From positions 52,147-116,146 of the forward strand of contig WGMZ01000031.1 of assembly GCA_016124735.1 (NCBI GenBank): DNA of 64,000 nucleotides, written 5' to 3'. Positions 19,532 through 45,221 of the stretch are shown here, one piece after another. Numbering within the stretch: position 1 is the first letter of the stretch; every line of letters begins with the position of its first letter. The translations under genes and the position numbers were made by a program. This stretch comes from Bacteroidota bacterium. Its GTDB lineage: Bacteria; Bacteroidota; Bacteroidia; UBA8524. A model generated the notes under the pieces. It ran no database searches, was not told the origin of the DNA, and saw only the letters and a list, made by a program, of their open reading frames with translations.

Positions 19532-19552
19532 GTTTTGTAATCCAAATAATTG

Positions 19553-24513: not shown

Positions 24514-25470
24514 TTATTTATTATCGGATTTGTTCAATACCAGTTTAGGTAATACCAATTTTAAGGTAGTGAATAAAACCAGTAGTGACATTAGTATAAT
24601 CAGGCTGATTTGTAATTTGTTCACACTGTAAATCAGAATGAGATTGATTGTAACCTGAGCAATGCCATATATCACTGCCACCAGAACATGAGGCCAAGCC
24701 AATTCATTAGCCAGTACCTGGTAAACATGCAGGCGGTGTGCTTTAAAGATATTTTCACCTCGAATCAATCTTTGAATAATTGTCAAAATGGAATCGGCAC
24801 CATACACAGAAAAAAACAGAATATATTCCCAACTTCTCGTTTGAATCATGAGTAGCAGCATCATAAAGGCCAGGATATAAGCCATCCCTACACTTCCAAC
24901 ATCCCCAGCGAAGGTTTTCGCTTTTTTTCGGACATTAAATAGTGCGAACACCAAATTACCCACCAGTAAAACCCGAATTAAGTCCGGGTCAATGAATTGA
25001 ATATCCAGATTGATTAAATAGTAAGATGCCAGAATAGAGGTAGAATAGAAAACTGTGATTCCATTAATTCCATCCATAAAGTTAAAGGCGTTAATCCAAC
25101 CGATAACTAGTACATAGGCAAGAATCCAATAGTGCCAATGAAAAGAAAAGATATTCAACTGGAGCAGAATTAAGCTTACACTAATGACGTGCATCAATAT
25201 TCTCAAGCGCCGGGAAAGATCAAATCTATCATCCAAAAAACTGATGCCGGCGATAAGAACCAGTCCACCTACAAACCATGAATATTGCATTCCAAACAAG
25301 GCATACCACGCAATAACGGCGAGGGTAAAAACAATACCTCCACCACGAATCGTTATAGAACTATGTGAGCTTCTCTCATTTGGCTTATCAATGATGTTGA
25401 ACTTGTCAGCCAACTTGAAATATCCCAGGATCAGGAGTAATAAGAGAATAAAAATGAGGAAATAAGTCAT
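24514..25470 (-). CDS. Polyprenyl-phosphate N-acetylhexosamine-1-phosphate transferase (WecA/WbpL/MraY family), the initiating transferase
   Basis: The protein is 318 aa and polytopic. The family signature NAFNFMDGINGI and DD-containing loops are present. Confidence 0.8.
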   Translation of the reverse strand: MTYFLIFILLLLLILGYFKLADKFNIIDKPNERSSHSSITIRGGGIVFTLAVIAWYALFGMQYSWFVGGLVLIAGISFLDDRFDLSRRLRILMHVISVSLILLQLNIFSFHWHYWILAYVLVIGWINAFNFMDGINGITVFYSTSILASYYLINLDIQFIDPDLIRVLLVGNLVFALFNVRKKAKTFAGDVGSVGMAYILAFMMLLLMIQTRSWEYILFFSVYGADSILTIIQRLIRGENIFKAHRLHVYQVLANELAWPHVLVAVIYGIAQVTINLILIYSVNKLQISLIILMSLLVLFTTLKLVLPKLVLNKSDNK

Positions 25471-26396
25471 TTTGAATTAAAGCTTTGTATGGTTTCCTTC
25501 AGTCCGTCACGAGCCGCAATAGGCATTCGTTCCCAACCAAGAGCAAGTTTAATTTTATCATTCGACACCAAGTAACTTTCCGTCAATTTTTGCAGTCTGG
25601 CAGAATTGAGTGGCAATTTAAGCATGTCTCCAGCCTTAGCCATAAACTGAATTATGGAAGGTGAAATATTCCATATTTTCCCTTTCTTCCCTATACTTTC
25701 ACCAATTAATTTGACCAAATCGTTGGTGGATAAATCTTCATCATCTGCAACATTATATGTCCCAGCTGGAAAATCATCCATTTCGCAAATATTCAGAATT
25801 ACCTCAGTCAGATTTCCTACCGATAAATAGGATCTTCTGTTTTCGAATGCTCCGAGTGGATAGGGCATTCCATTTTTCAGGAAACTGTATAGCAGGTTGA
25901 GATTTCCTTTGTTCCCAGGCCCGTGAATCATGCAGGGACGTAAGATAATCAAGCGTTTTCCTGCTGGAAGTGTTTTTGATTGAAGATAACTTTCTGCCTC
26001 GCGTTTAGAAGCTCCGTAAGGATTATCCACTTCAAAAGCATCTGTTTCTTTGAGGATTCCTTTCACAGAGGAAGCAACCGCCTTTACTGAACTCATGAAT
26101 ATAAAATGAGTTGCTGTTTCATCTGCCATAAAAGCTTCGAACACTTTTTCTGTGAGTCCGACATTTATCAAGTTATAATCGGAAGCCAGACTTTTGTTCT
26201 TCAAATCATGAGCCTTTCCTGCCAGATGTATCCATGCTTTGGCATGAATATTTGCGGCATCCAATTCGTCCCAGGTAATGGTTGCCGGATAAGATTTACT
26301 CCTCGAAATACCCATGACTTTATGCCCGGTAGCTACAAGTTTTAGAGCCAGATTCTTACCAACAAATCCGCTGATGCCAGTTATGACTATGTTCAT
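25467..26396 (-). CDS. NAD-dependent nucleotide-sugar epimerase/dehydratase (short-chain dehydrogenase/reductase, SDR, fold)
   Basis: The N-terminus is MNIVITGISGFVGKNL, with a YxxxK-type catalytic region. The length is 309 aa. Confidence 0.7.
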   Translation of the reverse strand: MNIVITGISGFVGKNLALKLVATGHKVMGISRSKSYPATITWDELDAANIHAKAWIHLAGKAHDLKNKSLASDYNLINVGLTEKVFEAFMADETATHFIFMSSVKAVASSVKGILKETDAFEVDNPYGASKREAESYLQSKTLPAGKRLIILRPCMIHGPGNKGNLNLLYSFLKNGMPYPLGAFENRRSYLSVGNLTEVILNICEMDDFPAGTYNVADDEDLSTNDLVKLIGESIGKKGKIWNISPSIIQFMAKAGDMLKLPLNSARLQKLTESYLVSNDKIKLALGWERMPIAARDGLKETIQSFNSK

Positions 26397-27577
26397 GAAA
26401 GGTAACCTAAAATAGATGCTGCCAGCTTATCATTAATAGCTGCCCGTGTAAAATCCTGTTTAAACTGAATACGCTCTTCCTCGTGGTATGTGTAATTCTT
26501 CAACTGTTCTACCATGCTTTGAACATCTCCCGGATCAAAGAGGATAGAATTGGGAACATTCTTGCGGATAAACTCATTGGCAAAACCGCCAACGCCGGCT
26601 ATAATGGGAATGTTATACGCACCCATTTCAAATATTTTGGATGGCAAGACTTTTTTAAAGGCATCGTAGTCGTTCAAATGCAAAAAGAAAAAGTCTGTGT
26701 TTTTATAAATCTCAAAAAGTTCCGACCTTTTTACAGGTGGGTGCAGTTCCACGTTCTTGGGCTTGAATTCTGCCAGGGCCTCTTCCAATTTGGCTTTTGC
26801 TCCACCGTCACCAATAACCAGAAACTCATACTGCCCTTCAAGTGCCTTTGCTGCCTGAGGAATAATCTTATGAAGACCTTGCCCTTCCCCCATATTTCCA
26901 GCATAAACGATTTTATAGGGTGGCTTTGGGTTGCGGGTGCTGGACATTTCCATCTCCAGAAAGGCATCATCTATTCCATTGGGAAATTCCGAATATTTCG
27001 GACGAGTATACTTTGCGAAATAAGGTTTAAATCCTCCTGAAATCAGGTTGATATGTTTGGCGTCGGAAAACGTCTTTTTCTCCACATACTTTAAAATCGG
27101 CAGCACCATGCTCTTAATCAATTTGTTCTGCAAAACATCTTTCATGGTATCCACAAAAATGTCGCGTATATCGAGATAAAGGGGTGCTTTCTTTTTCCTG
27201 GCAATTTTATACCCCAGATAGGCTGTAAATAAGCGGCTGCTGGAGGCAAATACCAAATCATACTTTTGTTGACGGGCTATTTTTTGAGCCTGTGAATAGT
27301 AATTATAGAATGACTTGATTTGATCCATGAACCCACTTTGATGTGTCGGTATCGCGATTCGGTGAATCGTCATGTTTCCCCGCCTTTCCAACTCAGGAGC
27401 TTCACTTTGAAAAGTGCTGTACCTATTGGGTTGCGTACTGATAATATCTATCTGGTTGTCCTCTCCGAATTTACTTGCCAGGGTCTTGGCTAAGGGGCTG
27501 TTTCGAAAAGAGCCGGCACATAAATCCGGCTCAAAATAGAAGGTTAAATAAAGTATCCTTTTCGGCTTGGTTTCCAA
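26393..27577 (-). CDS. Glycosyltransferase family 4
   Basis: The protein has a GT-B fold. Its C-terminal domain carries the GT4 EX7E-like region (GEGQGL ... E). Confidence 0.7.
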   Translation of the reverse strand: METKPKRILYLTFYFEPDLCAGSFRNSPLAKTLASKFGEDNQIDIISTQPNRYSTFQSEAPELERRGNMTIHRIAIPTHQSGFMDQIKSFYNYYSQAQKIARQQKYDLVFASSSRLFTAYLGYKIARKKKAPLYLDIRDIFVDTMKDVLQNKLIKSMVLPILKYVEKKTFSDAKHINLISGGFKPYFAKYTRPKYSEFPNGIDDAFLEMEMSSTRNPKPPYKIVYAGNMGEGQGLHKIIPQAAKALEGQYEFLVIGDGGAKAKLEEALAEFKPKNVELHPPVKRSELFEIYKNTDFFFLHLNDYDAFKKVLPSKIFEMGAYNIPIIAGVGGFANEFIRKNVPNSILFDPGDVQSMVEQLKNYTYHEEERIQFKQDFTRAAINDKLAASILGYLS

Positions 27578-27590
27578 TTTTCTTTTTTAA

Positions 27591-29138
27591 TTAGTTGGTG
27601 ATGATGCTGATTTCGCTCACAAGCTCTTTGGAAAAGCTGATTCGTAATCCGAATGTGTCCTGCTCCTTATTGAAAAACGGTGAATATTTTCGACTCACCT
27701 TCTCCATTTTTTCCTGACCCAGGAATTTGAAATTTACCCGGCCGTTTACCAATGCTCCTTCATCCGTCATTTCAATCTGACAGGATGGATGAAACAGCAG
27801 ATTTAGCTCCCCCTGAGGGTTTGACCCTTTGAGCAAATCTACCAATCGCAACGCATTTGAATTCGCCCTAAATTGCCTTTCATGCACAATTCCGGCTTTT
27901 CTGTATCCGTCATGCCAGGCTATCAGTTCATTCGTAGTGTCTTGTGCTATATGGCATTTCGCCCTTCTTCCCACTCTGAATCCACTCCAAATTTCGGATG
28001 AATTCGCACCATTTACAGTTACAGTATTATGGTTTCTTGTAGACCGTTCCTCGCTTCGCGTGGATGAAATCTGGTATGTGGACGTGCCCGGGTCTACGAT
28101 AACCGGACTTTCATCTACGTACAGACAAAAACTCAAAGTATCTGCATGAGCATGCCCCGGTTGATACTCTGGCGTCAGATTTCCGCAGGTGGTATACAAG
28201 GTCATGTTTCCAGAATCCATCCTTCTGAAACCAGAATCCATTGCCTGATTTAAATTGGAAATTGGCAATTGGCAGGCCTGAAATCTGGAACGAATTTCAT
28301 CCGGTTCCGGCGCTATGCCATAGGCCGAGTCATTGAACAGAGGCCAATCCGACATGAATGTTAGCCAGTTCATAAATGCACCGGCCCTTTCTAAAGTATC
28401 CTTTAACTTTTGAATCAAATCCGGCTCTCCTGCCTGCTTATGCCGACAATAAATGTAAACATCAAGCAATCGGTCTGTGAGTATCAGATGATACATTGGA
28501 CTTCTTTCATAATGACATCCATCCTGATAAAATTGTTCCTCCAACTGCTCTTTCAAAATGCTGGCTGCATAATCCTGCCAGTTTGATTCTTTAAAAAACA
28601 GTCCGGCCATATAAAGTGCACAGGCATTTTCAAGAAGATGATTCGCTAACAGATGAAACTCAAAATTATCTCTGAGCCGGGTGGCATCGTCCCAAATTAC
28701 CTGTATATATTCCCGTTTATTGATGCCAAATTGCTCAATAAATTTAATCCAGTTGATGATGCGTAATGAGGTCGGATACGGCTGCTTTCCAATATTTAAG
28801 TTCGGATATTGGCGAACAAAATCATCCATCAATTTCTGACCCTGCTCTTCCTTGCATTCGGCCAGAATAGAGAAATAATTGAGATTATAGGTCCAAAGCA
28901 ATCCAAATTGCTGATTCTCCCAATTCACGGGAAAATGGATTGGAATACTAAGATTGATGAATTGCAATTCCTGAAATTCCCGCCGCTCCTTCTTTTCCCA
29001 CCAGTTAAATCGATCTATTTGGGTTGCTGGTGCCTGACTGTACCTGATTCGTTTGCCCGGAATACGAAGTAGTATCTGGTGATAAATCTGGGTGAACTTA
29101 AGATGGACTACCGTGCGAATAATCTGGCCCAATTTCAT
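27591..29138 (-). CDS. Heparinase II/III-like family protein without a signal peptide (cytoplasmic). It is a candidate polymer-modifying enzyme, possibly a uronyl C5-epimerase-type.
   Basis: The 515-aa protein has an N-terminal alpha/alpha-toroid-like region and a C-terminal beta-sandwich typical of Hepar_II_III-fold proteins. No N-terminal signal or lipobox is present (MKLGQIIRTVVHLKFTQIYHQ). Confidence 0.55.
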   Translation of the reverse strand: MKLGQIIRTVVHLKFTQIYHQILLRIPGKRIRYSQAPATQIDRFNWWEKKERREFQELQFINLSIPIHFPVNWENQQFGLLWTYNLNYFSILAECKEEQGQKLMDDFVRQYPNLNIGKQPYPTSLRIINWIKFIEQFGINKREYIQVIWDDATRLRDNFEFHLLANHLLENACALYMAGLFFKESNWQDYAASILKEQLEEQFYQDGCHYERSPMYHLILTDRLLDVYIYCRHKQAGEPDLIQKLKDTLERAGAFMNWLTFMSDWPLFNDSAYGIAPEPDEIRSRFQACQLPISNLNQAMDSGFRRMDSGNMTLYTTCGNLTPEYQPGHAHADTLSFCLYVDESPVIVDPGTSTYQISSTRSEERSTRNHNTVTVNGANSSEIWSGFRVGRRAKCHIAQDTTNELIAWHDGYRKAGIVHERQFRANSNALRLVDLLKGSNPQGELNLLFHPSCQIEMTDEGALVNGRVNFKFLGQEKMEKVSRKYSPFFNKEQDTFGLRISFSKELVSEISIITN

Positions 29139-30190
29139 GCCGACAAAAATGTTTTGATTTCATCCAAATTCCAGGTCATCATGCCGCTTGACAAGCCTTT
29201 TAATGCCCTTCCATGTGCAATGAGTTGAGTGGCATTCCCCTTGGTTTCAATGAACCTGATTTCTGCATAACGGAAGTATTTCTGGTATTTCGTCGGGAAA
29301 AAATCCCTTTTGAATTTTGCAATCAATTTCCAGTCTGTTCCATTCATGCTTGCATATACGCATGCGTGATCCTCATCATTCACAGGGCTAGGTTCCGTTA
29401 CCGTCGAAACAAAGTCTATTCCCCCCAAGCGAATAGCATGAAATGCGCTGCTGTTGATTTCGCACAAGGGATTTAATGATTTATTCGTTGGGTCGAAATG
29501 TTGAATCCAGTTTCTTTCTGAAGGAGAGTCCATTGGAACTATTATTCCGCCCGGCCCCGGGATCACCTCGACTGCACGATACTGCTGACTTCCTGTCCCT
29601 TCTTTGATCAGGGTAGCGAAATGGTCTCCTGTAAAATAGAGTCCCGATTCATCATCAGAATCTCCGGTTAATACCCAAAATCCATTTCGATACTCATCGT
29701 ATATGCAGCCGTGTACATGCCTGATTTCAGCAGCTTTGAATTTCCAAACCTCTCTCCAATTCACCCCATCGTTTGTGCCAAATACACGAACTTCTCCCCG
29801 ATCTGCGTTGGAAAAATATTCTCCAAAACAGGCAAATCCATCGGGTGAAATGCCCAAGTTCAACGGGCGTGAACCCTTGAAAGAGGAGAAAGTCCATTCT
29901 TCGGAAAAACCGGAATTGGAATAAATCACTTTTTTGTTTTCTACCCTCAGAAATCCATCAAGAAACGGGTAAATGCTATGTACTCCAAGACGAAGCACTC
30001 TCCGAAAAATTGCCCAATTCCCAAGGAGCTTCTCTTTCCAGGATTTGGCCCATTTGATTCCATTTTCCCTCCTACCGTTTTCATGGATCCAAACCAATCG
30101 GGTTGCCTGTGAAACTAAAATCGCTTTCCGCTCTGCATCGTAATAAAGCGGTTCATTGTTAACGTGGAAAGAAACCTTCGGTGTTTGCAT
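29135..30190 (-). CDS. Hypothetical protein (351 aa) of unknown function within the polysaccharide operon
   Basis: It shares a co-directional 4-bp overlap with the upstream gene. There is no signal peptide. It is beta-rich with Trp/Gly-rich segments and no family was recognised. Confidence 0.5.
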   Translation of the reverse strand: MQTPKVSFHVNNEPLYYDAERKAILVSQATRLVWIHENGRRENGIKWAKSWKEKLLGNWAIFRRVLRLGVHSIYPFLDGFLRVENKKVIYSNSGFSEEWTFSSFKGSRPLNLGISPDGFACFGEYFSNADRGEVRVFGTNDGVNWREVWKFKAAEIRHVHGCIYDEYRNGFWVLTGDSDDESGLYFTGDHFATLIKEGTGSQQYRAVEVIPGPGGIIVPMDSPSERNWIQHFDPTNKSLNPLCEINSSAFHAIRLGGIDFVSTVTEPSPVNDEDHACVYASMNGTDWKLIAKFKRDFFPTKYQKYFRYAEIRFIETKGNATQLIAHGRALKGLSSGMMTWNLDEIKTFLSA

Positions 30191-31128
30191 TATTTTTTAA
30201 GTTTCAATCTCCATGGATAGACCAGCATAAACGCCCAGGAAAGCATCTGGTGCATAGTCAAAGCGAGATGCTTATAGAAGGGCAATTTTACCGGATGGCG
30301 CTCGTAACCATTTTTAAAAATGAAACCATTCACTTTTTGAATCATGGCTATCTGGTAATCGCTAAACTCCTTTTCCCATTTGCGGGTATTCGATGTTAAT
30401 AAAGGACCAAAGGTTTCCTTTTTCCAGGAAACCTCATGTGCTGAAACCAGCTCCTTCGCACTTTCTGAAAAGGCCAGCATAGCCGGGTCATAATCTACTC
30501 CAACATGAACGCATATTTGCTTTAACGTTTCCTCTGCATTGCCAATCAAGGTTTCATAATTCAATTCCAGATAGGCTTCACCAAAGTATTTTTTTCCCAA
30601 ACGACGGCCTCTTGGCATTTGCGCCCGATAGATATAGGCATGAAGAAAAAAGGGCCAGGATTTCGACCAGTCTGCCTTGGTGCGACTCAGAACCACATCT
30701 CTTGGATCGCGCATCAGGTGGATGACTCTGGCATCCGGAAAAAAGTGCTTCAGTTCGCTGACAAAGTCCATATTTCGCGGGTCCTTATCGCCCAAATGAT
30801 GCTTCTGTTTTTCATCCAGGTAAGCCTTTGCCAATGCATTGAACCAGCTCATTTCAGATTCAAGTTCATCATCCGGCAAGTTGTCACTTATTTGGACTTC
30901 GCTAATTTTCGCCCTCTTAAAATCATCGTCTTCTCTTAAAAGAGATAGAATTTCCTCCCTCGTTAACCCATTAAAGGCCTGTTTAATGATATATTTTCTA
31001 AAAAAGTGCGTTTCCGGAAGAAAAGCAATATCCGGATGTGCATTCAGCATGCTTTGCAAAAGACTCGTCCCTGATCTTCCTACTCCAAAAATGAAAATTG
31101 GCTTATTTATTTTCTGCATACCAGGCAC
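30190..31128 (-). CDS. Sulfotransferase-family protein (PAPS-dependent)
   Basis: The 5'-PSB loop is FIFGVGRSGTSLL and the 3'-PB motif is LMRDPRDVVLSR. The length is 312 aa. Confidence 0.8.
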   Translation of the reverse strand: MPGMQKINKPIFIFGVGRSGTSLLQSMLNAHPDIAFLPETHFFRKYIIKQAFNGLTREEILSLLREDDDFKRAKISEVQISDNLPDDELESEMSWFNALAKAYLDEKQKHHLGDKDPRNMDFVSELKHFFPDARVIHLMRDPRDVVLSRTKADWSKSWPFFLHAYIYRAQMPRGRRLGKKYFGEAYLELNYETLIGNAEETLKQICVHVGVDYDPAMLAFSESAKELVSAHEVSWKKETFGPLLTSNTRKWEKEFSDYQIAMIQKVNGFIFKNGYERHPVKLPFYKHLALTMHQMLSWAFMLVYPWRLKLKK

Positions 31129-32944
31129 TTAAAAAGAGTAAACGGTAAATTTTAAATGTATTATTCGCCTTATTAGCAAAGTGATCGTTAATGATGTCCT
31201 GAAGTTTTTCGCGATTCAGTCGCTCAGTTAACCCCTTGTTATAAAAGTATTTCATGATTCGCTCCGGGCCAAGATTACCGATTTTTTTATCCAATGGTGG
31301 ATGAAACCCGGCTTTTCTGCGATCAACTAATTCCTTTGGGATTCTGGAAACAAGTACATCATACAAAGGAATTTTTCTTCTCTTCAGAGTAATGAGTCGG
31401 CTATCCGGTTCTGCCAGGGTATTCTCCAGAAGCTCAGGAGTGGCTAATGGAACCCTCAGTTCAATGCTTGCCTGCATACTGGATTTATCTGCCACCATGA
31501 AATTATGACTTAGAAAGCCCTGAACATCCACAAGCATCGCTTTTTTCACGGAGCTGAAATGCCGGTAAGGAGCATGAATAGCCTTTACATCATTTTGATA
31601 TCTCTTCAAGTCTTCTCCATTTGAAGTCAGGGCTTCAATTTCTGCATTGGAAAATGGAGTCAGCAATGCCTGATACGACTTAGAGAAAGAATTCTCTCTA
31701 AAAAAATTACTAAAACGTTCCAGCTTTTTAGAGAAGAACTTAGATCGTTTCATCAGTGGTTTTGCGAGAGGCCACACAAATCTGCCCAATTTGGTAACGA
31801 GTAAGAGCTGGTAACGCGGATAACCGGCAAAAATTTCATCTGCTCCCATTCCACTCAGCATGACCGTACACCCTCTTTTTCTTGCTTCAATGGAGATATG
31901 CTTCGATACAGAGAAGGTAAAATCTGCAATCGGCTCTTCGACCAAACGGGCCACTTCTTCCACTGAATTTAAAAATGCTTCCGGACTATCTTCTTCTACT
32001 GCCGGAGGTAACTCAATCAGATCGACCTTCAGCTCTTTTGCGATTTTTCTTCCATAATCCAGGTCGCTGGTAAATCCGGATTCCTTCACTTCCTCCTGAT
32101 TTTCGCTCAGTATCATCGTTGTGGTTTCCGTCTCCATGGAGGATAATATCAGGCTCGAGTCCACACCACCGCTGAAAAACAACCCAACAGGCACATCACT
32201 CAGCAAGTGATTTGAAATGCTCTTGTCAAGAACCTCATCCCAGGAAGTTGTTCTTTTCACAGCTTGAGCAGTCCAATATTCGGTAATGGATGGGTTCGAA
32301 ATTTCATTTTTCAAATCAAATCCAATCCAGTTTCCAGGAGCAACTTTATGTGTATGATTAAAACCGGTACGCGGTTCATATAAAAATCCAGCCGACAAGA
32401 AATCTGTCCAGACCTTCGGATCAATTTCCGGTTTCTTGCCCAAAACCTTCCAAATTGCTTTGAGCTCGGAAGCCCAAATCAATTGACCATCCCAGTAATA
32501 ATAATACAGAGGTTTAATTCCTAATTTATCCCGGCATAACCAAAGCTTCTGTTCAACTGTATCGTAAATTACAAAAGCGAACATGCCCTGGAAATCTTTG
32601 AATCCCTCGGTGCCGAATTCAATAAAGTATTTGAGCAGAACTTCTGTATCAGAACTTGTTCTGAAGTTGTGACCCTTTGCGGACAATATTTCCTTCAGCT
32701 GGAGAAAATTGTAAATCTCGCCGTTGAAAGTCAGGATATAGCGTTCATCTTCGGAGAAGAAGGGTTGATTGGATCGGGGATCCAAATCCAAAATGCTCAG
32801 ACGAACATGTCCTAATACAACATGGTGGTCGGCTGCCGTAAGCTCATGGTAATTCTGAAAATCCGGCCCCCGATGAAGGATGCTTTGAATTCCTGCCTCA
32901 ATATTCAGGCTATTATTAGAGATATATCCTACTACTCCGCACAT
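31103..32944 (-). CDS. Asparagine synthetase B-like glutamine amidotransferase (WbpS-like candidate uronate amidotransferase)
   Basis: The N-terminus MCGVVGY carries the Ntn nucleophile Cys2. A PP-loop SGGVDSS is present and the length is 613 aa. Confidence 0.85.
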   Translation of the reverse strand: MCGVVGYISNNSLNIEAGIQSILHRGPDFQNYHELTAADHHVVLGHVRLSILDLDPRSNQPFFSEDERYILTFNGEIYNFLQLKEILSAKGHNFRTSSDTEVLLKYFIEFGTEGFKDFQGMFAFVIYDTVEQKLWLCRDKLGIKPLYYYYWDGQLIWASELKAIWKVLGKKPEIDPKVWTDFLSAGFLYEPRTGFNHTHKVAPGNWIGFDLKNEISNPSITEYWTAQAVKRTTSWDEVLDKSISNHLLSDVPVGLFFSGGVDSSLILSSMETETTTMILSENQEEVKESGFTSDLDYGRKIAKELKVDLIELPPAVEEDSPEAFLNSVEEVARLVEEPIADFTFSVSKHISIEARKRGCTVMLSGMGADEIFAGYPRYQLLLVTKLGRFVWPLAKPLMKRSKFFSKKLERFSNFFRENSFSKSYQALLTPFSNAEIEALTSNGEDLKRYQNDVKAIHAPYRHFSSVKKAMLVDVQGFLSHNFMVADKSSMQASIELRVPLATPELLENTLAEPDSRLITLKRRKIPLYDVLVSRIPKELVDRRKAGFHPPLDKKIGNLGPERIMKYFYNKGLTERLNREKLQDIINDHFANKANNTFKIYRLLFLSAWYAENK

Positions 32945-34035
32945 TAGTTATTGCCTACTATTTCAATAAATTTTCGATTCCAATCGGTCGAATTAAACTC
33001 TTTCGATCTTTCGTATGATTGCTCACCCATTTCTTTCAACATGGCTTGATTGTTCACCAATTTCCGCATTACATCCGCCAGACCCTTATTATTTTCTATA
33101 GGCACCAAAAAGCCATTCCGACCCTCTTCAACCAATTCGTCGAGAAAGCGCCACCTTGTGGTCACAATTGGTAAGCCCGCTTCCATTGCTTCAATCAAAG
33201 CACCCGGATATCCTTCACCTTTCCAAAAAGATGGATACACAAAGGCATCGGCTTGCAGTAATTGTTTTCCAATTTCGGCATGTGGAAGTTCTCCAAGATA
33301 CTGGATGGTTGGTGTCTGCTCCAGCTGCCTGAGAATAGTATCATCGGTGCATTTTCCTATCACCTTTACAATAAAATCCGCCTCTTGCTTCGACAGAATC
33401 ATGCAAGCTTCGACCAAAACCTGTATCCCCTTTTCTTTTTTTACATGACCGACATAGACAAAGGTGGTTTTATCGGATGGCAATTTTTCTTCCTTTCGCA
33501 CTAATTTGTTTGCTGGCCGAGACGTTGGAAACCATTCAATATTCTCAACAGATCCTATGTTCTCTTTCCAAAAAGTGATTAAGCCCTTTGTTTGTAGCAG
33601 AATTCTATCAGAGGACCCTAGCCGTTTATAGTACCACTTATGCAGAGGTTTCGCCTCACAATAAAGGTCCAAGTCGCTGCCAAATAAGCGAATTTGAAAT
33701 TTTCTCTTAAAAATCCGTGCCATTGCAAAAAACACTATTCCCCATGGCCCCACCCTTTGTGGGTTTGCATGGAATGAAATAATCTGATAGAAAGGAATCG
33801 ATAGTAGTATTTGAAAGAAAAGTTTAATCTGCAAAAGCATATTGGCAAATCTGCCCGGCAACACCCTCAAGCTAATCAGACTAAAGTCCAGGTTACTTTT
33901 TTCTATGTCTTTGAGCAGAAGATCAAAAGACACCCGCGTTCCTCCCAGAGGAGGTGGCAATGGACCTATTAAAAGGATACGCTTTTTTAGCTCAGCCATT
34001 TTTCTTTCCAGGTTTGGAAAATATACAAATGCCAA
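32944..34035 (-). CDS. Glycosyltransferase family 4
   Basis: The C-terminal half of the GT-B fold carries FVYPSFWKGEGYPGALIEAMEAGLPIV (EX7E). Confidence 0.75.
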   Translation of the reverse strand: MAFVYFPNLERKMAELKKRILLIGPLPPPLGGTRVSFDLLLKDIEKSNLDFSLISLRVLPGRFANMLLQIKLFFQILLSIPFYQIISFHANPQRVGPWGIVFFAMARIFKRKFQIRLFGSDLDLYCEAKPLHKWYYKRLGSSDRILLQTKGLITFWKENIGSVENIEWFPTSRPANKLVRKEEKLPSDKTTFVYVGHVKKEKGIQVLVEACMILSKQEADFIVKVIGKCTDDTILRQLEQTPTIQYLGELPHAEIGKQLLQADAFVYPSFWKGEGYPGALIEAMEAGLPIVTTRWRFLDELVEEGRNGFLVPIENNKGLADVMRKLVNNQAMLKEMGEQSYERSKEFNSTDWNRKFIEIVGNN

Positions 34036-35888
34036 AGTTTTCGTTCACTGAGATTTTCACCCGCAAGAAAGCGATCACGGTAATGGATAATCTCGGGAAC
34101 ATTAAAATAGGCAGAATCCAATTTCTCCTCATTTATCACATCCATAAGCGTGGCCTTCAATGGCCCTCTCAACCATTCTGCGAGAGGAACAACAAATCCT
34201 TGCTTTGGCTTATCAATCTGTTTCTTATCGATCAAATCCCAGACAATTCTTTTGAGCAGATATTTTCCAGTTTGTTCATTTATCTTGAGATGATTACTTA
34301 GAGCAAAGGATTCCTCAATTATCCGGTAATCGAGTAGCGGCTCCCGTCCTTCGATGGAGAACCACATGGTTGAACGATCTACCTTGGTCATAATTTGATC
34401 CGGCAAATGTGTTCGGACATCCGTGAAGAGCATATCGGCCAGTGGATTTCCTGAACGAAGGACATTTTTAAATCGTCCAGGCTCGTCGCCTTCGATATGC
34501 ACCCATTTATTAATTTCTTCGTCCGAAATATATTTCGAGATTCCCCGCAGAATATCTACAATGTCTTTTTGTTTCAGAAGACTTTTAATTTTCCTGATTC
34601 TACCCAGCGGATTTCGTTTTCCCACCAATTTTTCCGCAACTGAATCAGGCATTAGCAGCGCCACTTCGCAACCCAGGATGTAAATTAAACGAAGCGGGGA
34701 ATTACTCATTTTATGAATCTTGAGCGCCCATTTGTGTTTATCGTACCCACCAAAAATTTCATCACCTCCATCAGCAGAAAGGACTACCTTCACTTTTTCA
34801 CTTGCCAGTTCACTAACCATCATGGTTGGTATTGCACTTGGATCACCAAATGGTTCATCAAACAGAAATGGAATATCCTGCAAGTATCTCAAGGCATCCT
34901 CTATGGCACAAACACGACTTGAATGCGTCGTTCCGAAATGGGCAGCGATTTTTTTTGCATCATCTGACTCATCAATTTTTTTATCCTGAAACCCTATGGT
35001 AAATGTTTTAAGGTCTTCCCTCTTTTCTGAGAGTTTTCCCACCAATAAGGTGCTATCATATCCACCACTTAAAAATACTCCAACAGGCACATCCGCAATC
35101 ATCCTGTAGTTGAATGCTGAATCAAATAATTGATTAAAAGTCTTTACTCCTTTTGATTCATCATGTATCGCATGTTTTTTAAGTTCTGACAGCGCATTTT
35201 CTTTGAAATGCCAGTATTCAGTGTCATTCGTTTCGAAACCGTTTAAGTTCAATTCGAGGTAATGCCCGGGAGAAATTTTATGAATTCCTTTATATATACA
35301 GAGATGTCCCGGAACATACCCGAATTGCATGAAATCTTTAATGGCCCGAGGATTCAATACCGGCTTGAATTCCGGGTGACCAAAAAAAGTTTTTAATTCT
35401 GAGCCAAAATAGAAATTCCCCTCATTCCATCCATAATACAACGGCTTAACCCCCACCCTGTCGCGAACAAAGAACATTTTACCTTTCACCTTATCTAACA
35501 AGGCAAATGCAAACATTCCATTCAGATGATGGACAAAATCAATCCCATAAGATCCATACAAGGCCAACAATACTTCCGTATCAGAATTTGATTGAAACGG
35601 GTATTTCGCTTCTTTCAGGAATTCATCTTTAAGTTCCTGATAATTGTAAATCTCTCCATTGAAAACAATTACCACCGATTTATCGTGGTTATACATAGGT
35701 TGGTTGGCCACTTCAGACAAGTCGATTATCGAAAGGCGTTTATGAACCAATCCTATGTGATGATTTCCGACAGTCTCAATTTGAATCCCCGTGCTATCCG
35801 GACCGCGGTAGTCAATGGCTTTTCCCATCGCTTCCATGGTAGATTCTGTGACAATTGACTTACTAAGTAATCCTGAAAAGCCGCACAT
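33987..35888 (-). CDS. Asparagine synthetase B-like glutamine amidotransferase (second copy)
   Basis: The N-terminus MCGFSGL carries Cys2. A PP-loop SGGYDST is present and the length is 633 aa. The gene overlaps the downstream GT4 by 49 bp. Confidence 0.85.
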   Translation of the reverse strand: MCGFSGLLSKSIVTESTMEAMGKAIDYRGPDSTGIQIETVGNHHIGLVHKRLSIIDLSEVANQPMYNHDKSVVIVFNGEIYNYQELKDEFLKEAKYPFQSNSDTEVLLALYGSYGIDFVHHLNGMFAFALLDKVKGKMFFVRDRVGVKPLYYGWNEGNFYFGSELKTFFGHPEFKPVLNPRAIKDFMQFGYVPGHLCIYKGIHKISPGHYLELNLNGFETNDTEYWHFKENALSELKKHAIHDESKGVKTFNQLFDSAFNYRMIADVPVGVFLSGGYDSTLLVGKLSEKREDLKTFTIGFQDKKIDESDDAKKIAAHFGTTHSSRVCAIEDALRYLQDIPFLFDEPFGDPSAIPTMMVSELASEKVKVVLSADGGDEIFGGYDKHKWALKIHKMSNSPLRLIYILGCEVALLMPDSVAEKLVGKRNPLGRIRKIKSLLKQKDIVDILRGISKYISDEEINKWVHIEGDEPGRFKNVLRSGNPLADMLFTDVRTHLPDQIMTKVDRSTMWFSIEGREPLLDYRIIEESFALSNHLKINEQTGKYLLKRIVWDLIDKKQIDKPKQGFVVPLAEWLRGPLKATLMDVINEEKLDSAYFNVPEIIHYRDRFLAGENLSERKLWHLYIFQTWKEKWLS

Positions 35889-35944: not shown

Positions 35945-37081
35945 TTATAACCCTGCCCGTTTAATTACTTCGAATAAATCTTGAGCAGCCAGGGATTCAT
36001 GGTAATAATATCCTCTTTCGATGCGCTCCTTTTCCATTAGCTGCCTGTCCTCCTCAAGAGTTAATTCCATTGCATTTGCAAGGGCATGGAAATCATCCAC
36101 CTGAACGAGTCTTCCATATTTTCCGTTCTCCAGAATTTCTGTTGGCCCGGTTTTGCAAGCAGTGCTCACAACAGGAACTCCTGTTGCCAAAGCTTGAATC
36201 AATACATTTGGAAGTCCCTCATAACGGGATGACAATACAAAAAGGTCTGCCTTGTGCAGATAAGGCAAAGGGTTAGAAACATAGCCCTTGATTGTGACAT
36301 ATTCTTCTAAACGCAATTCGTGGATAATTTTTATTATCTGAAGGTAATAAGCATCCTCCTTATTGTATTCTCCAAGTATGGTGAGGTGAATATTCTTAAA
36401 TTTATTTCTAAGAAGGTCCAGACTTTTAAGCAACATATCGAAGCCCTTTTGAAAATCCATCCGACCAATCGCCACTATATTCTTTTCCGCCTTTGGGAGT
36501 CCTTCCTTTACAGTTTCCTGCATAAGTATTTTGAAATCCTCTCCTATGACAGGATTTCTAACAAGCAGGACTCTATCTTTTTTCAATGAATAGAAAGATG
36601 CTATCTCTTGCACCATTTCTTCGGAAACAGAAATGATTCCCGAATAAAAACGGAATAAAATTCTTGCAGCAAAAATATGCACCCGCACACTGAATCGAGC
36701 GCTTTCCCAAGCTTGTTTGGGCGCAATAGCCTCCCTGAAAAATATCGGAATCGAACTTCCAGAAAAAATTTTCGCCAAAGCAATGACATTTCCTGCATTG
36801 TGGAGCGAGGTAATGACACAATCAAATTTCTTCAATTTTAGAAATTTGAACCAATCCGGAAGGGTTTTAAGAATGTTGCTGCGCTTTAAACGAAGTACCT
36901 CAAACTTATCCGACAGTTCGGTTTTAAGAGCTCCTCCTTCCTGGCCAATAACCAGACTTACCCGGTAATGTTCCGACAGGATATTTGCGTACTTTATCAG
37001 GTTCTTTTCTGCCCCACCTCCCGCCATTCTCGGCAGAAATATGGCGATACGTCCTGTGTTCATTCTATGATTCATTCGCAA
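35945..37081 (-). CDS. Glycosyltransferase family 4
   Basis: The protein has a GT-B fold with C-terminal LSSRYEGLPNVLIQALATGVPVV (EX7E region). The true start may be an internal Met. Confidence 0.75.
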   Translation of the reverse strand: MRMNHRMNTGRIAIFLPRMAGGGAEKNLIKYANILSEHYRVSLVIGQEGGALKTELSDKFEVLRLKRSNILKTLPDWFKFLKLKKFDCVITSLHNAGNVIALAKIFSGSSIPIFFREAIAPKQAWESARFSVRVHIFAARILFRFYSGIISVSEEMVQEIASFYSLKKDRVLLVRNPVIGEDFKILMQETVKEGLPKAEKNIVAIGRMDFQKGFDMLLKSLDLLRNKFKNIHLTILGEYNKEDAYYLQIIKIIHELRLEEYVTIKGYVSNPLPYLHKADLFVLSSRYEGLPNVLIQALATGVPVVSTACKTGPTEILENGKYGRLVQVDDFHALANAMELTLEEDRQLMEKERIERGYYYHESLAAQDLFEVIKRAGL

Positions 37082-37115: not shown

Positions 37116-38297
37116 TCATTTTGGGTCGATGTCGACACTCTTGTGATTAAGCCTGTAATTTCCGTATAGTAAGATCGGCAACATGATCGTTGTGAAATTA
37201 AAACTCAATCCAGACGCAATAATCAATACCAGACTAAGATTAAAAATACCCGATATATATTTACGAAGCACAAAAATTGAAAGAATCAATCCAATGATTC
37301 CCCCTCTGTACAAAGTATCAACCCAAAAGGTATCTCCCAAAAATATACCGTCAGGTTGTTGAAAACCATATCCAATCCATGGATTCGATTCAATACTGCG
37401 AATCGTTTCGTAATTCAACAAATCATGATTGGAAGCATCATACCTTGAAGAATATCCTTTTGAAATCAAATCAGCAAATCCACTGTACCCCGCATTTTCC
37501 AAAATTGAACTGAAAATTGGACCTATAAAAATAGCTGCAACCAAACCCACCCAAGGTAAAATAAGAAACGCCCGAGTTCCCTTTCCAACCAGTCTGTAAT
37601 AACTGTAAAGGAGCAATAAAATGAGTCCTATATAATACGCTTTGGAAAGTGTAAAAATTCCTAAAACAGCAGCGGCACCAAACCATCGCCATTTCTTCAA
37701 GCTGGCAAAGAAAAATGCCGTATAAAGGGAAAAGGCTGACAAATAAAGTGGAGTAAAGAAAACTCCGGTTTTTCGAGTGATCGTGCCATACCAATCCAGA
37801 GAATCTGATAAGTTAACACTCCTCGCATCTGAGAAATAATATTCTTTCAATAGCTCCACCGATTCCTTTGGATAGAATTCCTGATACAATACGGCCAAGC
37901 AATTCAGTACTACCATTATCTTAGAAAATCTTTCAAGGACAGGTAAGATAATATCTGATTGGTTTTCGTAGTAAAATAAAAAAACAAGAAAGGCTACATG
38001 TCCCAGTATTGGGATGTATGGAATTTTAGCAAAACCCGTTAAAGAGGAAAACAGGTACAATACAAACAAGCATATATATAGAAATTGTCCGGTTTGAAGC
38101 CGTTTTCGTTCTAAGATTTGCCATAATAAAATGAAAGGGAAAATGACATAGTAATTTGAAATAGCCAGATCTGATATCTTATACGGAGGTGCACCCAGAA
38201 TAATGCAAAGAATTAATGCAAGGCTAGAAATCCGATTAAAACGATAAAGGATTATACTGTAAATGGAGAGAACAAAAACAAAAATGTTAACCAGCAC
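37116..38297 (-). CDS. O-antigen polymerase/ligase-like polytopic membrane protein (Wzy-type candidate)
   Basis: The 393-aa protein has about 10 TM helices and a larger periplasmic loop near the C-terminal third. It sits in a Wzx/Wzy-dependent locus context. Confidence 0.55.
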   Translation of the reverse strand: MLVNIFVFVLSIYSIILYRFNRISSLALILCIILGAPPYKISDLAISNYYVIFPFILLWQILERKRLQTGQFLYICLFVLYLFSSLTGFAKIPYIPILGHVAFLVFLFYYENQSDIILPVLERFSKIMVVLNCLAVLYQEFYPKESVELLKEYYFSDARSVNLSDSLDWYGTITRKTGVFFTPLYLSAFSLYTAFFFASLKKWRWFGAAAVLGIFTLSKAYYIGLILLLLYSYYRLVGKGTRAFLILPWVGLVAAIFIGPIFSSILENAGYSGFADLISKGYSSRYDASNHDLLNYETIRSIESNPWIGYGFQQPDGIFLGDTFWVDTLYRGGIIGLILSIFVLRKYISGIFNLSLVLIIASGLSFNFTTIMLPILLYGNYRLNHKSVDIDPK

Positions 38298-38385: not shown

Positions 38386-39429
38386 CTATCCGGAAAAATC
38401 ACCAAAGTAAAATTCCGCGATTTTGGGATATAATCGAAATGTTTGAAGAATGTATTGATAGTCGTATGAGTTTTTATTCAACTCCAATGACTTTTTGTAC
38501 TCACCATAGTGAGTCAGGTATTTATCCTTACTGACAACCGGGTTTAATTGGTAGTTAGGACTCACTTCCAGTATGAGTGGTTTGGTCGATAAATCATCGT
38601 TTTGCCAGGCAATATCGAAAGCGCCAGTAACCATTTTCAATTTTCTAAACTCCTGAAGGATAAATGCTCGCCAGTTTTCAGGGAAAGAAACAAAATCAAC
38701 CTTGGACCCATGACCAGTTGAGGTCGGCTTCCATTCATCTGCCAGGTTAATACGCCAATAATGATGTACAATTTCGTTCCCAGTTAGAATAACTCGTAAG
38801 TCTCTTCGCATATTCAGTAATTCCTGAATTAGAATCGCATCATTCCTTTTCAGGTAATCATCATTTAATAAGGATAGAAGCTCCTCCTTGTTGTTGACTT
38901 TATGGACTCCTTTGGCACTGGCAGAATGCACTTCTTTTAATAGGCATGGATATTCAAGAGCTTCCAGATCAATCTCCTCAATGGTATGGAAGCTTTGTGT
39001 TTGAGGCGTGCTGATATTCAAGCGGCGGAATTCATTGGACATATGCGTCTTATTCTCCCAAAACAATGCTTCGTTTAATTCAGGGATTACTTTATTTCCC
39101 TGCTCTTTAAGCTGCTCGATGATAAAGCAAAGATTTTTCGAATAGTTGGCAAACTTCTGTCTATTCAAATAGCCGCGATCATAACTCATTATAATCGTAC
39201 AATTCTTCAGGCGCCCAATATCTTCTCCTTTAAAAACCGTATATGGAATGTCCATTTCAACCAAGGCTTTCTCCCAAGCAAAATCATTCACCGCCGTATC
39301 AGAAAACCAATACCTCCATCCCCGATTCGGCTTCCAGATAACAACATCCGCATTCGCAAACCTCTTCCGGGAAGAGAGGGTCAATAAAGCCCACAAGCGA
39401 AATAATTTTTTAATTAATTTCTTCATCAC
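38386..39429 (-). CDS. ATP-grasp-fold ligase (candidate amide-bond-forming enzyme)
   Basis: The central region YPCLLKEVHSASAKGVHKV ... ILIQELL ... DLRVILTGNEIVHHYW follows the ATP-grasp pattern (Lys, acidic and Arg residues). No signal peptide is present. Confidence 0.55.
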   Translation of the reverse strand: MMKKLIKKLFRLWALLTLSSRKRFANADVVIWKPNRGWRYWFSDTAVNDFAWEKALVEMDIPYTVFKGEDIGRLKNCTIIMSYDRGYLNRQKFANYSKNLCFIIEQLKEQGNKVIPELNEALFWENKTHMSNEFRRLNISTPQTQSFHTIEEIDLEALEYPCLLKEVHSASAKGVHKVNNKEELLSLLNDDYLKRNDAILIQELLNMRRDLRVILTGNEIVHHYWRINLADEWKPTSTGHGSKVDFVSFPENWRAFILQEFRKLKMVTGAFDIAWQNDDLSTKPLILEVSPNYQLNPVVSKDKYLTHYGEYKKSLELNKNSYDYQYILQTFRLYPKIAEFYFGDFSG

Positions 39430-39943
39430 GCAGCTTTTTAATTTCTGACAGGCCGTGGTATTGAAGATTCAACTCTTGAACGGCTCTGATAATATCTGAG
39501 TACAATTTTTCCTGTCCTCGCTCCTGGTTATAAGACAAATCATCATAATAAATGACCGAAGCATATTTACTTACAAGCAGCCTCAGGTACTTTAATTTAT
39601 GTCTTGCAGAAGGCACAATTATGCATTCCGAAGAAATATTATTTTCTTTTAACCAATCTCGAGTTACCCTAAAAAGCTCCATCTTTCGTGCTGTAAGGAT
39701 GAGAATCTTATAGCCTTTACTTTCGTACTCTTTTAATTTATTTATTACTCCGCGAATGGGCTTTGCCGATGCATACGCCTTTCTGGAATATCCACCCTTT
39801 ACCAAACATGGCCAGGTATCTGCCAGTGTATTATCCAAATCAAACACGACCAAATTCGCAGCATTTATAGTAAGTCTGAGCTTTTTCTTGTTGTAGTTGA
39901 GCCAATCCAGGAGTATAAATAATACTTCTCTTATTCTTGTCAT
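39410..39943 (-). CDS. HAD-superfamily phosphatase
   Basis: Motif I VVFDLDNTLAD (DxDxT) is present. The length is 177 aa and the gene overlaps the ATP-grasp gene start. Confidence 0.65.
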   Translation of the reverse strand: MTRIREVLFILLDWLNYNKKKLRLTINAANLVVFDLDNTLADTWPCLVKGGYSRKAYASAKPIRGVINKLKEYESKGYKILILTARKMELFRVTRDWLKENNISSECIIVPSARHKLKYLRLLVSKYASVIYYDDLSYNQERGQEKLYSDIIRAVQELNLQYHGLSEIKKLRDEEIN

Positions 39944-39944: not shown

Positions 39945-41108
39945 TTACAGACCCAGTTCCACTGGGAGTTTCATCAGGGATTTAATTGCATTCACAATGA
40001 CTTCATTCTCATCTTTCGAACGCGCTGCAACTCTTATGAATTGACCATTCAAACCAATTTTATCCGAACAATTTCTGACATAGACGCCATGGTCTGACAA
40101 AAGTCTTGCCTGCGCATGTCCAGAATTCAGTCCATTCATGAGCTCAATTAATACGAAATTGGCTTTCGAAGGGTACACTTTTATTCCTTCAATTGCCTGT
40201 AGTTCAGCAATGAAAAACAAAGACTCCGTGATGTATTTCTTTCGTACAATTTCGTAGGCATCATTAAAGTCCTTCCTCACATAGAGTCGAAAAAAGTATT
40301 CTGAAAGACCGTTTAAGTTCCACAAGTAACCATTCGAAAATAATTCCTTCACCCATTCACTCTTCATGACCGCATATCCGCAACGCAAACCAGCAACACC
40401 AAAATCTTTCGACATACTTTTAACTAAAATCACATTGTCATTTTCCAGAACAATAGGCAATACCGATTTAAGCTCCATATCGCTACTCTCATATGCAAAA
40501 TGAATAAAACTCTCATCGACAATAATGTTATCCAGATAGCTTAACTCCGCTATAATTCTAGATATATCTTCGAATTTTAAATAGCCACCATCCGGATTAT
40601 TCGGATTGATTAATACAATAGAACTTGCTCCGCTATTTTTGACAAAATCGATATATTCATCTACATCCAATTTAAAATTCTTTTCCTTCTTTAATTCATA
40701 AAAAACAACCTCAATATTGGGTGTGATGTATTCATAATAGGAGGAAAAAGTTGGTATATTAACAATTAGTTTGCCCTTAACGTAACGATGCAAAACTGCT
40801 TGAATTGCCTCTATCGCACCGTTCCCAACAAAAATACGCGCTGGATCTATTTTCAAATTTTTACCTAATAACTCGGCAATTTCAGAACTTTGTGAGGGAT
40901 AAAATTCTAATACACGGTTGATTTTTCCTGTGTCAATTAGTTCTCGCTTAAAGTATTCGAGAAATAGTTCCGTTGCGTAAGGATTGCTTAAGAAGCAGGC
41001 ATCTACCTTAATTTTTAACTCAGGTATCTCCTCCAACATTGTAAATATGCTTGGAGAGTGTGTTCCAGAACGACTTTTTAGTTCTAATATTTTATCAAAC
41101 ATTTCCAT
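39945..41108 (-). CDS. Class I/II PLP-dependent aminotransferase (HisC/CobD-like)
   Basis: NPNNPDG and the PLP-Lys motif SMSKDFGVAGLRCGY are present. The length is 387 aa. Confidence 0.8.
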   Translation of the reverse strand: MEMFDKILELKSRSGTHSPSIFTMLEEIPELKIKVDACFLSNPYATELFLEYFKRELIDTGKINRVLEFYPSQSSEIAELLGKNLKIDPARIFVGNGAIEAIQAVLHRYVKGKLIVNIPTFSSYYEYITPNIEVVFYELKKEKNFKLDVDEYIDFVKNSGASSIVLINPNNPDGGYLKFEDISRIIAELSYLDNIIVDESFIHFAYESSDMELKSVLPIVLENDNVILVKSMSKDFGVAGLRCGYAVMKSEWVKELFSNGYLWNLNGLSEYFFRLYVRKDFNDAYEIVRKKYITESLFFIAELQAIEGIKVYPSKANFVLIELMNGLNSGHAQARLLSDHGVYVRNCSDKIGLNGQFIRVAARSKDENEVIVNAIKSLMKLPVELGL

Positions 41109-44703: not shown

Positions 44704-45221
44704 AACATTAAATTCGATTCTCTTAAAACGGTGTTTTTTTCTGCCTCAAATTCTTCTCGATTGAACAGAACATACCTTATTTTTCTTTTTATTTGAACTT
44801 CTACTTTTTCCAGCAACCTCATCAGATAGGCTTTATCGATATCTCCTACAAAGATTAAATCAATAATAGGACTATCCAGCCCCTTTCCTAATTCTCCAAC
44901 AAGATATACTTCTTCAAGCTGTCCTAATCGACTAACTACCCGATCTACAATTTGATCCAGGCCTGTATATTTGAGCAGGATATTATGAATGTCTGCAAAA
45001 AGCGGATGCTGCCTATTGGCTCCAAACAATTTGCGGTTTCCCTGATGAACGGACATCAAAAGTCCGGCTTTCTCAAATCTGTTTAGTTCAAGTCTTATTG
45101 CATTTGTGCTTTCACCAAATTCAGATTCAAGGCTCCTCAAATAGGCAGAGGTATCTGCATTAAGAAAAAATTTCAGCAATAGTTTCACCCTGGTTTTGGA
45201 TGAAATTAAAATATCAATCAC
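44688..45221 (-). CDS. Putative winged-helix transcriptional regulator
   Basis: The N-terminal wHTH-like segment is [11 protein letters not shown] ... [18 protein letters not shown]. The length is 177 aa. It lies between wzc and the sugar-biosynthesis genes. Confidence 0.4.

Follow-up and report, generated by a model that had tools for sequence, protein, structure and literature searches.

Introduction

AsnB-like genes are an established theme of bacterial glycan loci, in which they are found at times in several copies, and here we describe two of them, encoding proteins that we refer to as AsnB1 and AsnB2, in a 64,000 bp stretch of Bacteroidota bacterium DNA (assembly GCA_016124735.1, contig WGMZ01000031.1, positions 52,147 to 116,146), the whole of which is called the window below. 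In the account of King et al. 2010 given in PMC7468200, the AsnB homologue WbqG of E. coli O121 is required for GalNAcAN, the amide of N-acetylgalactosaminuronic acid (GalNAcA). [quoted passage not shown] A wbpS mutant of H. pullorum has an N-acetylhexosaminuronic acid (HexNAcA) in place of its amide HexNAcAN, and the glycan is truncated with no further extension (PMC6025236). A more complex relationship is seen in Bordetella, where the b-Cool locus has one asparagine-synthase gene and a product with two GalNAcAN residues and one GalNAcA (PMC12407052), and the wbm locus has three glutamine amidotransferase genes and a partly amidated homopolymer (PMC2615507); the count of genes is thus no simple guide to how many residues are amidated. 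An enzyme class unlike AsnB operates in C. jejuni HS:2, where glucuronamide is formed with ethanolamine or serinol and amidation must come before the next glycosyl transfer (PMC11800379).

The reading that we favor, with a probability of roughly 0.65, is that AsnB1 and AsnB2 are both cytoplasmic glutamine-dependent carboxylate amidotransferases that act on sugar acids of a sulfated Wzx/Wzy polysaccharide, and are not makers of asparagine. We consider it likely that AsnB2 forms a uronamide, and the chances that AsnB1 does so are about even.

The gene cluster is a Wzx/Wzy-type surface-polysaccharide locus of an uncultured marine Bacteroidetes metagenome-assembled genome, and the closest relatives of its AsnB-like proteins are from TARA samples and Tenacibaculum. 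Compared by description, P. gingivalis PGN_1234 is likewise an AsnB-like gene of Bacteroidota within a glycan pathway, but the P. gingivalis enzyme belongs to the Wbp/Vim pathway for di-N-acetyl-glucuronic acid, and a WbpB/E/D set is not evident beside the window genes. Bordetella BB0880 (b-Cool) and WbmC/WbmI/WbmZ, also compared by description, are asparagine-synthase-like genes in loci with synthesis of UDP-GalNAcA and its N-acetylglucosaminuronic acid counterpart UDP-GlcNAcA, and have uronamide products; wbm shows that one locus can hold several amidotransferase genes, whereas in b-Cool a single enzyme gives two amidated residues.

Results

Two intact AsnB-family proteins

The two genes are as follows.

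31103-32944, minus strand: AsnB1, 613 amino acids (aa), ATG start, intact open reading frame (ORF)
33987-35888, minus strand: AsnB2, 633 aa, ATG start, intact ORF

An initial annotation of this DNA had described two AsnB-like ORFs of these lengths with a Cys2 nucleophile and a PP-loop; its coordinates are exact, and the residues are intact by alignment. Both proteins have the N-terminus MCG, which carries the Cys2 nucleophile, and the PP-loop reads FFSGGVDSS in AsnB1 and FLSGGYDST in AsnB2. Pfam GATase_6/GATase_7 and Asn_synthase domains span both from end to end, with E-values of 1e-40 to 1e-78. In an alignment of 244 sequences that includes E. coli K-12 AsnB, the E. coli glutaminase residues C1, R49, N74, G75, E76 and D98, as well as K449, are all present in AsnB1, AsnB2 and the clades to which the two belong. 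A tblastn search over the 64 kb window yields no AsnB-like ORF besides these two, and GenBank annotates both as asparagine synthase.

Subfamily placement of AsnB1 and AsnB2

AsnB1 and AsnB2 share 29% identity, belong to different subfamilies and are not recent duplicates. The validated reference for the WbqG/WbpS type, of which P. aeruginosa O6 WbpS is a further member required for GalNAcAN, is E. coli O121 WbqG (L004:25454-27346), which was reached through a distant blastn match between the TviB-like gene of the window and the O121 O-antigen cluster; the other references are the AsnB homologue of the E. coli O35 cluster and K-12 AsnB. AsnB2 aligns with WbqG at 37% identity over 99% coverage (402 bits), and AsnB1 aligns with it over its full length at 29.6% identity (218 bits). 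By BLASTP, the matches of AsnB1 or AsnB2 to K-12 AsnB have 28-30% identity and 138-159 bits, and cover only about 62% (61-65%) of the proteins, at the N-terminal end. Scores against the NCBIfam models were as follows.

TIGR03108 (XrtA/PEP-CTERM equivalog, cut-off 816.9): AsnB2 499 bits, WbqG 528, AsnB1 303
TIGR01536 (asn_synth_AEB, cut-off 267): AsnB2 426 bits, WbqG 460, AsnB1 355
TIGR03104: AsnB2 347 bits, WbqG 364, AsnB1 217
NF006949 (housekeeping AsnB equivalog, cut-off 499): AsnB2 276 bits, WbqG 268, AsnB1 212

The profiles of AsnB2 and WbqG are nearly equal, both being highest for TIGR03108 though below its cut-off, and the best model for AsnB1 is TIGR01536. An XrtA/PEP-CTERM amidotransferase was considered and rejected on the TIGR03108 scores, and the window proteins scanned include no exosortase-type gene. 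Homologues of the lasso-peptide or β-lactam type were likewise rejected, with NCBIfam scores far under the cut-offs.

These scores bear on whether either protein is a true asparagine synthetase, with a housekeeping role or as a local supply of asparagine or ammonia, that lies in the locus by chance. Both pass TIGR01536, both carry the GenBank label, no other asnB is visible in the window, and asparagine synthesis is supported by certain homologues of the long AsnB form, the B. subtilis paralogues for example. However, WbqG passes TIGR01536 as well, so that the 'asparagine synthase' label says nothing on asparagine synthesis, and both proteins fall well under the NF006949 cut-off, with matches to this model in the N-terminal region only. 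Together with the partial alignment to K-12 AsnB, the replacement of Glu348 described below, the overlap or near contact of both coding regions with glycosyltransferase genes in a co-directional operon of 30 genes, and a cassette that is conserved across genera inside glycan loci, this makes a true asparagine synthetase highly improbable, in agreement with the initial annotation.

In a neighbor-joining distance tree (100 bootstrap replicates, 49 taxa, 584 columns, K-12 AsnB as outgroup), AsnB2 groups with WbqG and the O35 protein, to the exclusion of the AsnB1 clade, in 99/100 bootstraps. All 100 recover the AsnB1 clade as monophyletic, the ancestor that this clade shares with WbqG is that of the whole ingroup, and none of the 100 has AsnB1 and AsnB2 as sisters. 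The O35 asnB-like gene (L006:18361-20145, NZ_CP145714.1) appears to have a RefSeq start too far downstream, and an in-frame upstream start (MCGLVGFFSK...) brings back the catalytic Cys2.

The two clades also differ at the position of E. coli AsnB Glu348, which falls within the motif LSGEGSDE. Asp is found without exception in the AsnB2 clade (120/120 sequences, or 51/51 when counted by WbqG-clade membership), with AsnB2, WbqG and the O35 protein included, and in the AsnB1 clade (n=121) the residue is Met in 116 sequences, AsnB1 with its Met366 among them, and Leu in five; a background sample of the family has Asp in 55, Glu in 25, Met or Leu in 12 and other residues in nine. Work by Meyer and colleagues in 2010 reportedly showed that E. 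coli AsnB requires Glu348 to form the acyl-adenylate. Both window proteins resemble E. coli AsnB (PDB 1ct9) in the two-domain fold of an Ntn-glutaminase and a PP-loop synthetase and in the retained glutaminase residues and K449, but differ in an unrelated C-terminal region and in the replacement of Glu348.

AsnB2, with the full-length architecture, identity, NCBIfam pattern and Asp of WbqG, is thus best classed as a glutamine-dependent sugar-acid amidotransferase of the WbqG/WbpS type, from which it differs in having a marine Bacteroidetes host. AsnB1 lies outside this group, and its sequence places it in a separate AsnB-family clade of which no member has been studied; more than 120 clusters (at 90% identity) have at least 40% identity to it. 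The suggestion that both proteins are WbpS-like, for which a phylogeny with AsnB and WbpS-type members had been proposed as a check, therefore stands for AsnB2 and not for AsnB1.

Conserved gene neighborhoods

Both genes are closely associated with those for family 4 glycosyltransferases (GT4s), and the interleaving noted in the initial annotation is evident from the gene order around them.

35945-37081, minus strand: GT4 upstream of AsnB2 (Pfam Glyco_trans_1_4 and Glycos_transf_1, E about 1e-31)
32944-34035, minus strand: GT4 between the two amidotransferases (Pfam Glycos_transf_1, E = 1.5e-30)
30190-31128, minus strand: sulfotransferase adjoining AsnB1 (Pfam Sulfotransfer_3, E = 1.2e-34)
29135-30190, minus strand: conserved unknown soluble protein of 351 aa, without a Pfam or NCBIfam match
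27591-29138, minus strand: cytoplasmic heparinase-III (polysaccharide lyase family 12, PL12)-like protein (Pfam Hepar_II_III_C, E = 2e-44, and Hepar_II_III_N)
26393-27577, minus strand: GT4 that always follows the heparinase-like gene (Pfam Glycos_transf_1)
25467-26396, minus strand: short-chain dehydrogenase/reductase (SDR) of about 309 aa (Pfam Epimerase)
24514-25470, minus strand: WbpL/WecA-type initiating transferase (Pfam Glycos_transf_4)

The stop codon of the GT4 at 32944-34035 shares 1 nt with the AsnB1 ATG, and 26 nt are shared between AsnB1 and the listed start of the sulfotransferase; these overlaps suggest translational coupling. This GT4 has a mechanically assigned TTG start that lies 49 nt inside the end of AsnB2, and its true start is thus probably further downstream. 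None of the amidotransferases, the sulfotransferase or the heparinase-like protein has a transmembrane segment or a signal peptide, so their chemistry would be cytoplasmic, on nucleotide sugars or lipid-linked units.

The O121 cluster has the order tviB, epimerase, wzy, asnB (wbqG), GT4, GT4, and the O35 cluster has tviB, epimerase, wzx, asnB. The window likewise contains tviB, an epimerase, asnB and glycosyltransferase genes, and GT4 genes flank asnB in O121. A closer correspondence is seen in Tenacibaculum litopenaei, with the order AsnB2 (54% identity), GT4 (46%), AsnB1 (44%), heparinase-like (36%), GT4 (51%) and SDR (48%); that AsnB2-GT4-AsnB1 is kept there argues that both genes are maintained and are not redundant. 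Fodinibius (L088) has the order of the window from the GT4 through AsnB1, the sulfotransferase, the unknown protein and the heparinase-like gene to the second GT4. The GT4 directly upstream of the AsnB1-clade gene is homologous to that at 32944-34035 in L001 (46%), L087 (39%) and L088 (24%), and L091 has a GT4 of about 350 aa at the equivalent upstream position, assigned by position alone with the sequence uncompared.

Eleven AsnB1-clade loci, the window included, can be compared. A heparinase II/III-like gene is found no more than about 6 kb downstream in 10/11, and a GT4 of 385-420 aa is always next to it; the common order is AsnB1, WecB or a dehydrogenase in some cases, heparinase-like, GT4, an SDR of about 310 aa and a WbpL-type transferase. 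Homologues of the GT4 at 26393-27577 with 51-63% identity lie at the equivalent position in L001 and L089, and the GT4, SDR, WbpL order is also present in L089, L090, L092 and L093. A dehydrogenase gene is directly adjacent to the AsnB1-clade gene in L094, a JGI 3300075940 contig with the order AsnB1-clade gene, UDP-sugar dehydrogenase, heparinase-like gene and GT4, and is nearby in L001, L088 and L095.

The broader family was sampled by scanning contigs with generic AsnB motifs, which gave 80 background loci (27-32% identity) that do not represent the AsnB1 clade. At least two AsnB-like genes no more than 10 kb apart are present in 15/80, and we note that L094, L022, L048, L069 and L086 each have three full-length AsnB-like genes within 20 kb. 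The initial annotation had taken the presence of two paralogues as a sign of two amidation events, an argument that loses its force given these counts, the three genes for one polymer in wbm and the two residues amidated by one enzyme in b-Cool. The same observations favor a different interpretation, in which AsnB1 and AsnB2 are partly redundant, or act on one uronate at different stages (nucleotide sugar versus lipid-linked unit), and so tune the degree of amidation. We regard this as distinctly improbable: at 29% identity, in different subfamilies and with different conserved neighbors, the two proteins look functionally distinct, and an AsnB2-type gene adjoins the AsnB1-clade gene in only 2/11 loci.

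The heparinase-like partner of AsnB1

A profile of 10 orthologues of the heparinase-like protein matches heparinase III (5jmd, E = 3e-22), and the residues aligned to N240, Y294 and H424 of P. heparinus HepIII, which we take to be its catalytic residues, are invariant across the 10. The heparinase III fold family acts on uronate-containing glycans through abstraction of H-5, which ties the AsnB1 module indirectly to a uronate. Literature searches gave no description of a pairing of heparinase-like and asparagine synthase genes in glycan clusters.

A speculative possibility is that AsnB1, the heparinase-III-like protein and the GT4 that follows form an undescribed three-enzyme module, coupling uronate amidation to C-5 proton chemistry during assembly of the repeat unit. 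The lyase-fold protein would then be a C5-epimerase giving an L-configured uronamide, or a 4,5-eliminase, and abstraction of the C-5 proton would be easier once the carboxylate had been neutralized by amidation. We think such a module doubtful.

Uronate supply genes

Three genes that would supply uronates all lie within the same co-directional locus as AsnB1 and AsnB2, the first two being 6.5-9 kb upstream of AsnB2.

43411-44703, minus strand: TviB/WbpO-like UDP-GlcNAc 6-dehydrogenase, a source of UDP-GlcNAcA (NF011729 560 bits, cut-off 592)
42342-43367, minus strand: SDR, probable UDP-uronate 4-epimerase
15709-17055, minus strand: Ugd, UDP-glucose 6-dehydrogenase, a source of UDP-glucuronic acid (UDP-GlcA) (NF047673, TuaD-type, 556 bits; TIGR03026 479 bits)

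Along its full length, the TviB-like protein has 57% identity to the products of tviB in the E. coli O121 and O35 clusters. The SDR has PDB matches to 5u4q (350 bits), 6zl6 (179 bits) and WbgU/WbpP (141-144 bits), only 30% identity to the O121 epimerase, and a homologue (52% identity) that adjoins Ugd in T. litopenaei. The entry 6zl6 is labeled only 'Epimerase domain-containing protein' in PDB, and we take it to be the B. cereus UDP-glucuronate 4-epimerase; assignment of the SDR as a uronate 4-epimerase is plausible from these matches. The prediction of Ugd was borne out, as was that of a TviB/WbpA-like dehydrogenase at 42.3-44.7 kb, but the accompanying epimerase, described as TviC/WbpP-like, is nearer to 5u4q and 6zl6. 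The UDP-uronate-4-epimerase type of this SDR is a further difference from the WbqG/WbpS systems.

A probable third amidation route and a sulfation module

Two systems were overlooked in the initial annotation. The first is a trio of genes between Wzx and the candidate Wzy, which looks like a route for adding an amino alcohol such as ethanolamine to a uronate carboxyl, and would compete with AsnB1 and AsnB2 for the same uronates.

38386-39429, minus strand: ATP-grasp ligase (Pfam RimK/ATP-grasp)
39410-39943, minus strand: haloacid dehalogenase (HAD) phosphatase (Pfam HAD; TIGR01689, the EcbF/BcbF capsule phosphatase model, 34 bits, under the cut-off of 162)
39945-41108, minus strand: pyridoxal phosphate (PLP) enzyme like Ser/Thr-phosphate decarboxylases (Pfam Aminotran_1_2; 371 bits to PDB 6oux)

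The PDB label of 6oux is 'threonine phosphate decarboxylase-like enzyme', and we take it to be the S. multivorans L-serine-O-phosphate decarboxylase. The trio is conserved in L087 (ATP-grasp 51%, HAD 33%, PLP enzyme 62% identity). In principle it has the same three activities as C. jejuni Cj1436/Cj1437, Cj1438C and Cj1435 (PMC11800379), but the window ATP-grasp protein matches RimK-type models and not TupA-like ones.

The second is a complete module of 3'-phosphoadenosine-5'-phosphosulfate (PAPS) supply and sulfotransferase genes, the latter being the gene at 30190-31128.

18266-23600: CysN, CysD, CysC, the PAP phosphatase CysQ and an SLC13/CitMHS transporter with TrkA_C domains (Pfam)

A sulfated capsule or O antigen is predicted from the combination of the two. 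The sulfotransferase and the 351 aa gene sit between AsnB1 and the heparinase-like gene, as they do in Fodinibius (L088). The 351 aa protein travels with the sulfotransferase, and has homologues in L088 (31%), L087 (41%) and L010 (35%). Several sulfotransferases are carried by L087 and L088, and L087 also has secreted sulfatases.

Organization of the locus

The locus consists of about 30 co-directional genes on the minus strand, from 48732 down to 13039 (about 36 kb), mostly with small gaps or overlaps. It starts with Wza, Wzc, the TviB-like UDP-GlcNAc 6-dehydrogenase, the SDR and Wzx, and continues with the PLP enzyme, HAD phosphatase, ATP-grasp ligase, a Wzy-like protein with 10 transmembrane segments, GT4, AsnB2, GT4 and AsnB1. 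The sulfotransferase, unknown 351 aa protein, heparinase II/III-like protein, GT4, SDR and WbpL-type initiating transferase follow, then a PglD-like acetyltransferase, CysQ, the SLC13-type transporter, CysC, CysD and CysN, and the operon ends with WecB, Ugd, a GFO/IDH/MocA oxidoreductase and a multi-transmembrane protein of the LIC_10190 family at 13039-14583.

41095-42345, minus strand: Wzx flippase (Pfam Polysacc_synt)
37116-38297, minus strand: Wzy-like polymerase candidate with about 10 hydrophobic segments, without a Pfam match

The equivalent position of the Wzy candidate in L087 is occupied by a Wzy_C gene. The ORF at 44688-45221 (177 aa) separates Wzc from the TviB-like gene and matches no family; 16 nt at its start are shared with the dehydrogenase gene. 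Just past the operon end there is a second Wzx-like flippase (Polysacc_synt_3) on the opposite strand at 9950-11269. Among other genes in the window, one at 1250-5260 encodes a protein of 1336 aa with a C-terminal T9SS sorting domain, which fits a Bacteroidota origin, and another at 56057-57175 encodes a bacterial WD40 β-propeller protein.

Discussion

A plausible scenario, drawn from the mechanism of the AsnB family, is that glutamine is hydrolysed by the N-terminal Cys2, the ammonia passes to the C-terminal PP-loop domain, and there the C-6 carboxylate of a hexuronate, adenylated with ATP, would be converted to a primary amide. The most likely substrate of AsnB2 would be the HexNAc-uronate (GlcNAcA or GalNAcA) that the TviB-like dehydrogenase and the SDR produce. 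That of AsnB1 would most likely be a second and different uronate, either GlcA or galacturonic acid (GalA) derived from Ugd, or a second HexNAcA residue, and AsnB1 would act at or near the step of the glycosyltransferases that flank it, together with its lyase-fold partner. As C. jejuni and H. pullorum illustrate, the next glycosyl transfer may require the amide, and the tight interleaving of GT4 genes with AsnB1 and AsnB2 is consistent with amidation before that transfer.

Several observations weigh against this interpretation. AsnB1 has neither an acidic residue at the Glu348 position nor a characterized relative, and the SDR at 42342-43367 seems to be no close orthologue of TviC/WbpP. There are two uronate sources in the locus for three amidation systems, and the assignment of substrates among them is a guess. 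A uronate dehydrogenase lies within 10 kb in only 3/24 WbqG-clade loci, and a TviB-like or Ugd-like gene does so in about 15/83 loci (the 80 sampled and three of the AsnB1 clade); with dehydrogenase genes so seldom within this distance, the family may also act on other carboxylates. In L089, L090, L092 and L093, moreover, there are CMP-sugar and ulosonic-acid genes: all four have CTP_transf_3 neighbors, L092 also has KdsA-like (DAHP_synth_1) and SIS genes, and no UDPG_MGDP_dh gene is present within 10 kb in any of them.

The last of these points, with the placement of AsnB1 outside the WbqG clade and its Met at the Glu348 position, could be explained if only AsnB2 forms a uronamide and AsnB1 amidates a carboxylate other than the C-6 of a hexuronate (that of an ulosonic or nonulosonic acid, or of a pyruvyl, lactyl or amino-acid substituent), or performs some other chemistry of the AsnB family. 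Divergent chemistry of this kind exists, and the best PDB match, 7ylz, is a hydroxyamidotransferase. We consider this unlikely. The gene conserved beside AsnB1 in 10/11 loci encodes a PL12-like protein of a uronate-acting fold, dehydrogenase genes accompany the AsnB1-clade gene in L094, L001, L088 and L095, and the fully intact glutaminase site implies that the product should still be a primary amide. The 10 kb radius that leaves L089, L090, L092 and L093 without a dehydrogenase would also miss those of the window itself, which are 10.5 and 14 kb from AsnB1, and we therefore rejected the presence of a dehydrogenase within 10 kb as a test for uronamide formation.

If AsnB1 and AsnB2 do amidate uronates as we propose, their products would belong to a class of sugars with consequences at the cell surface, in that uronamides take negative charge off surface glycans and alter antigenicity and phage or host recognition. 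More generally, automatic 'asparagine synthase' labels in glycan loci are better read as sugar amidotransferases. AsnB2 provides one more case of a known enzyme type. What is new is AsnB1, as the representative of a widespread Bacteroidota subfamily that stands out by the residue substituted in its active site and by the lyase-fold partner conserved beside it. Taken as a whole, the locus brings together three systems that mask carboxyls, a PAPS supply of its own and a sulfotransferase, which points to a marine polysaccharide that is charged by sulfate rather than by carboxylate.

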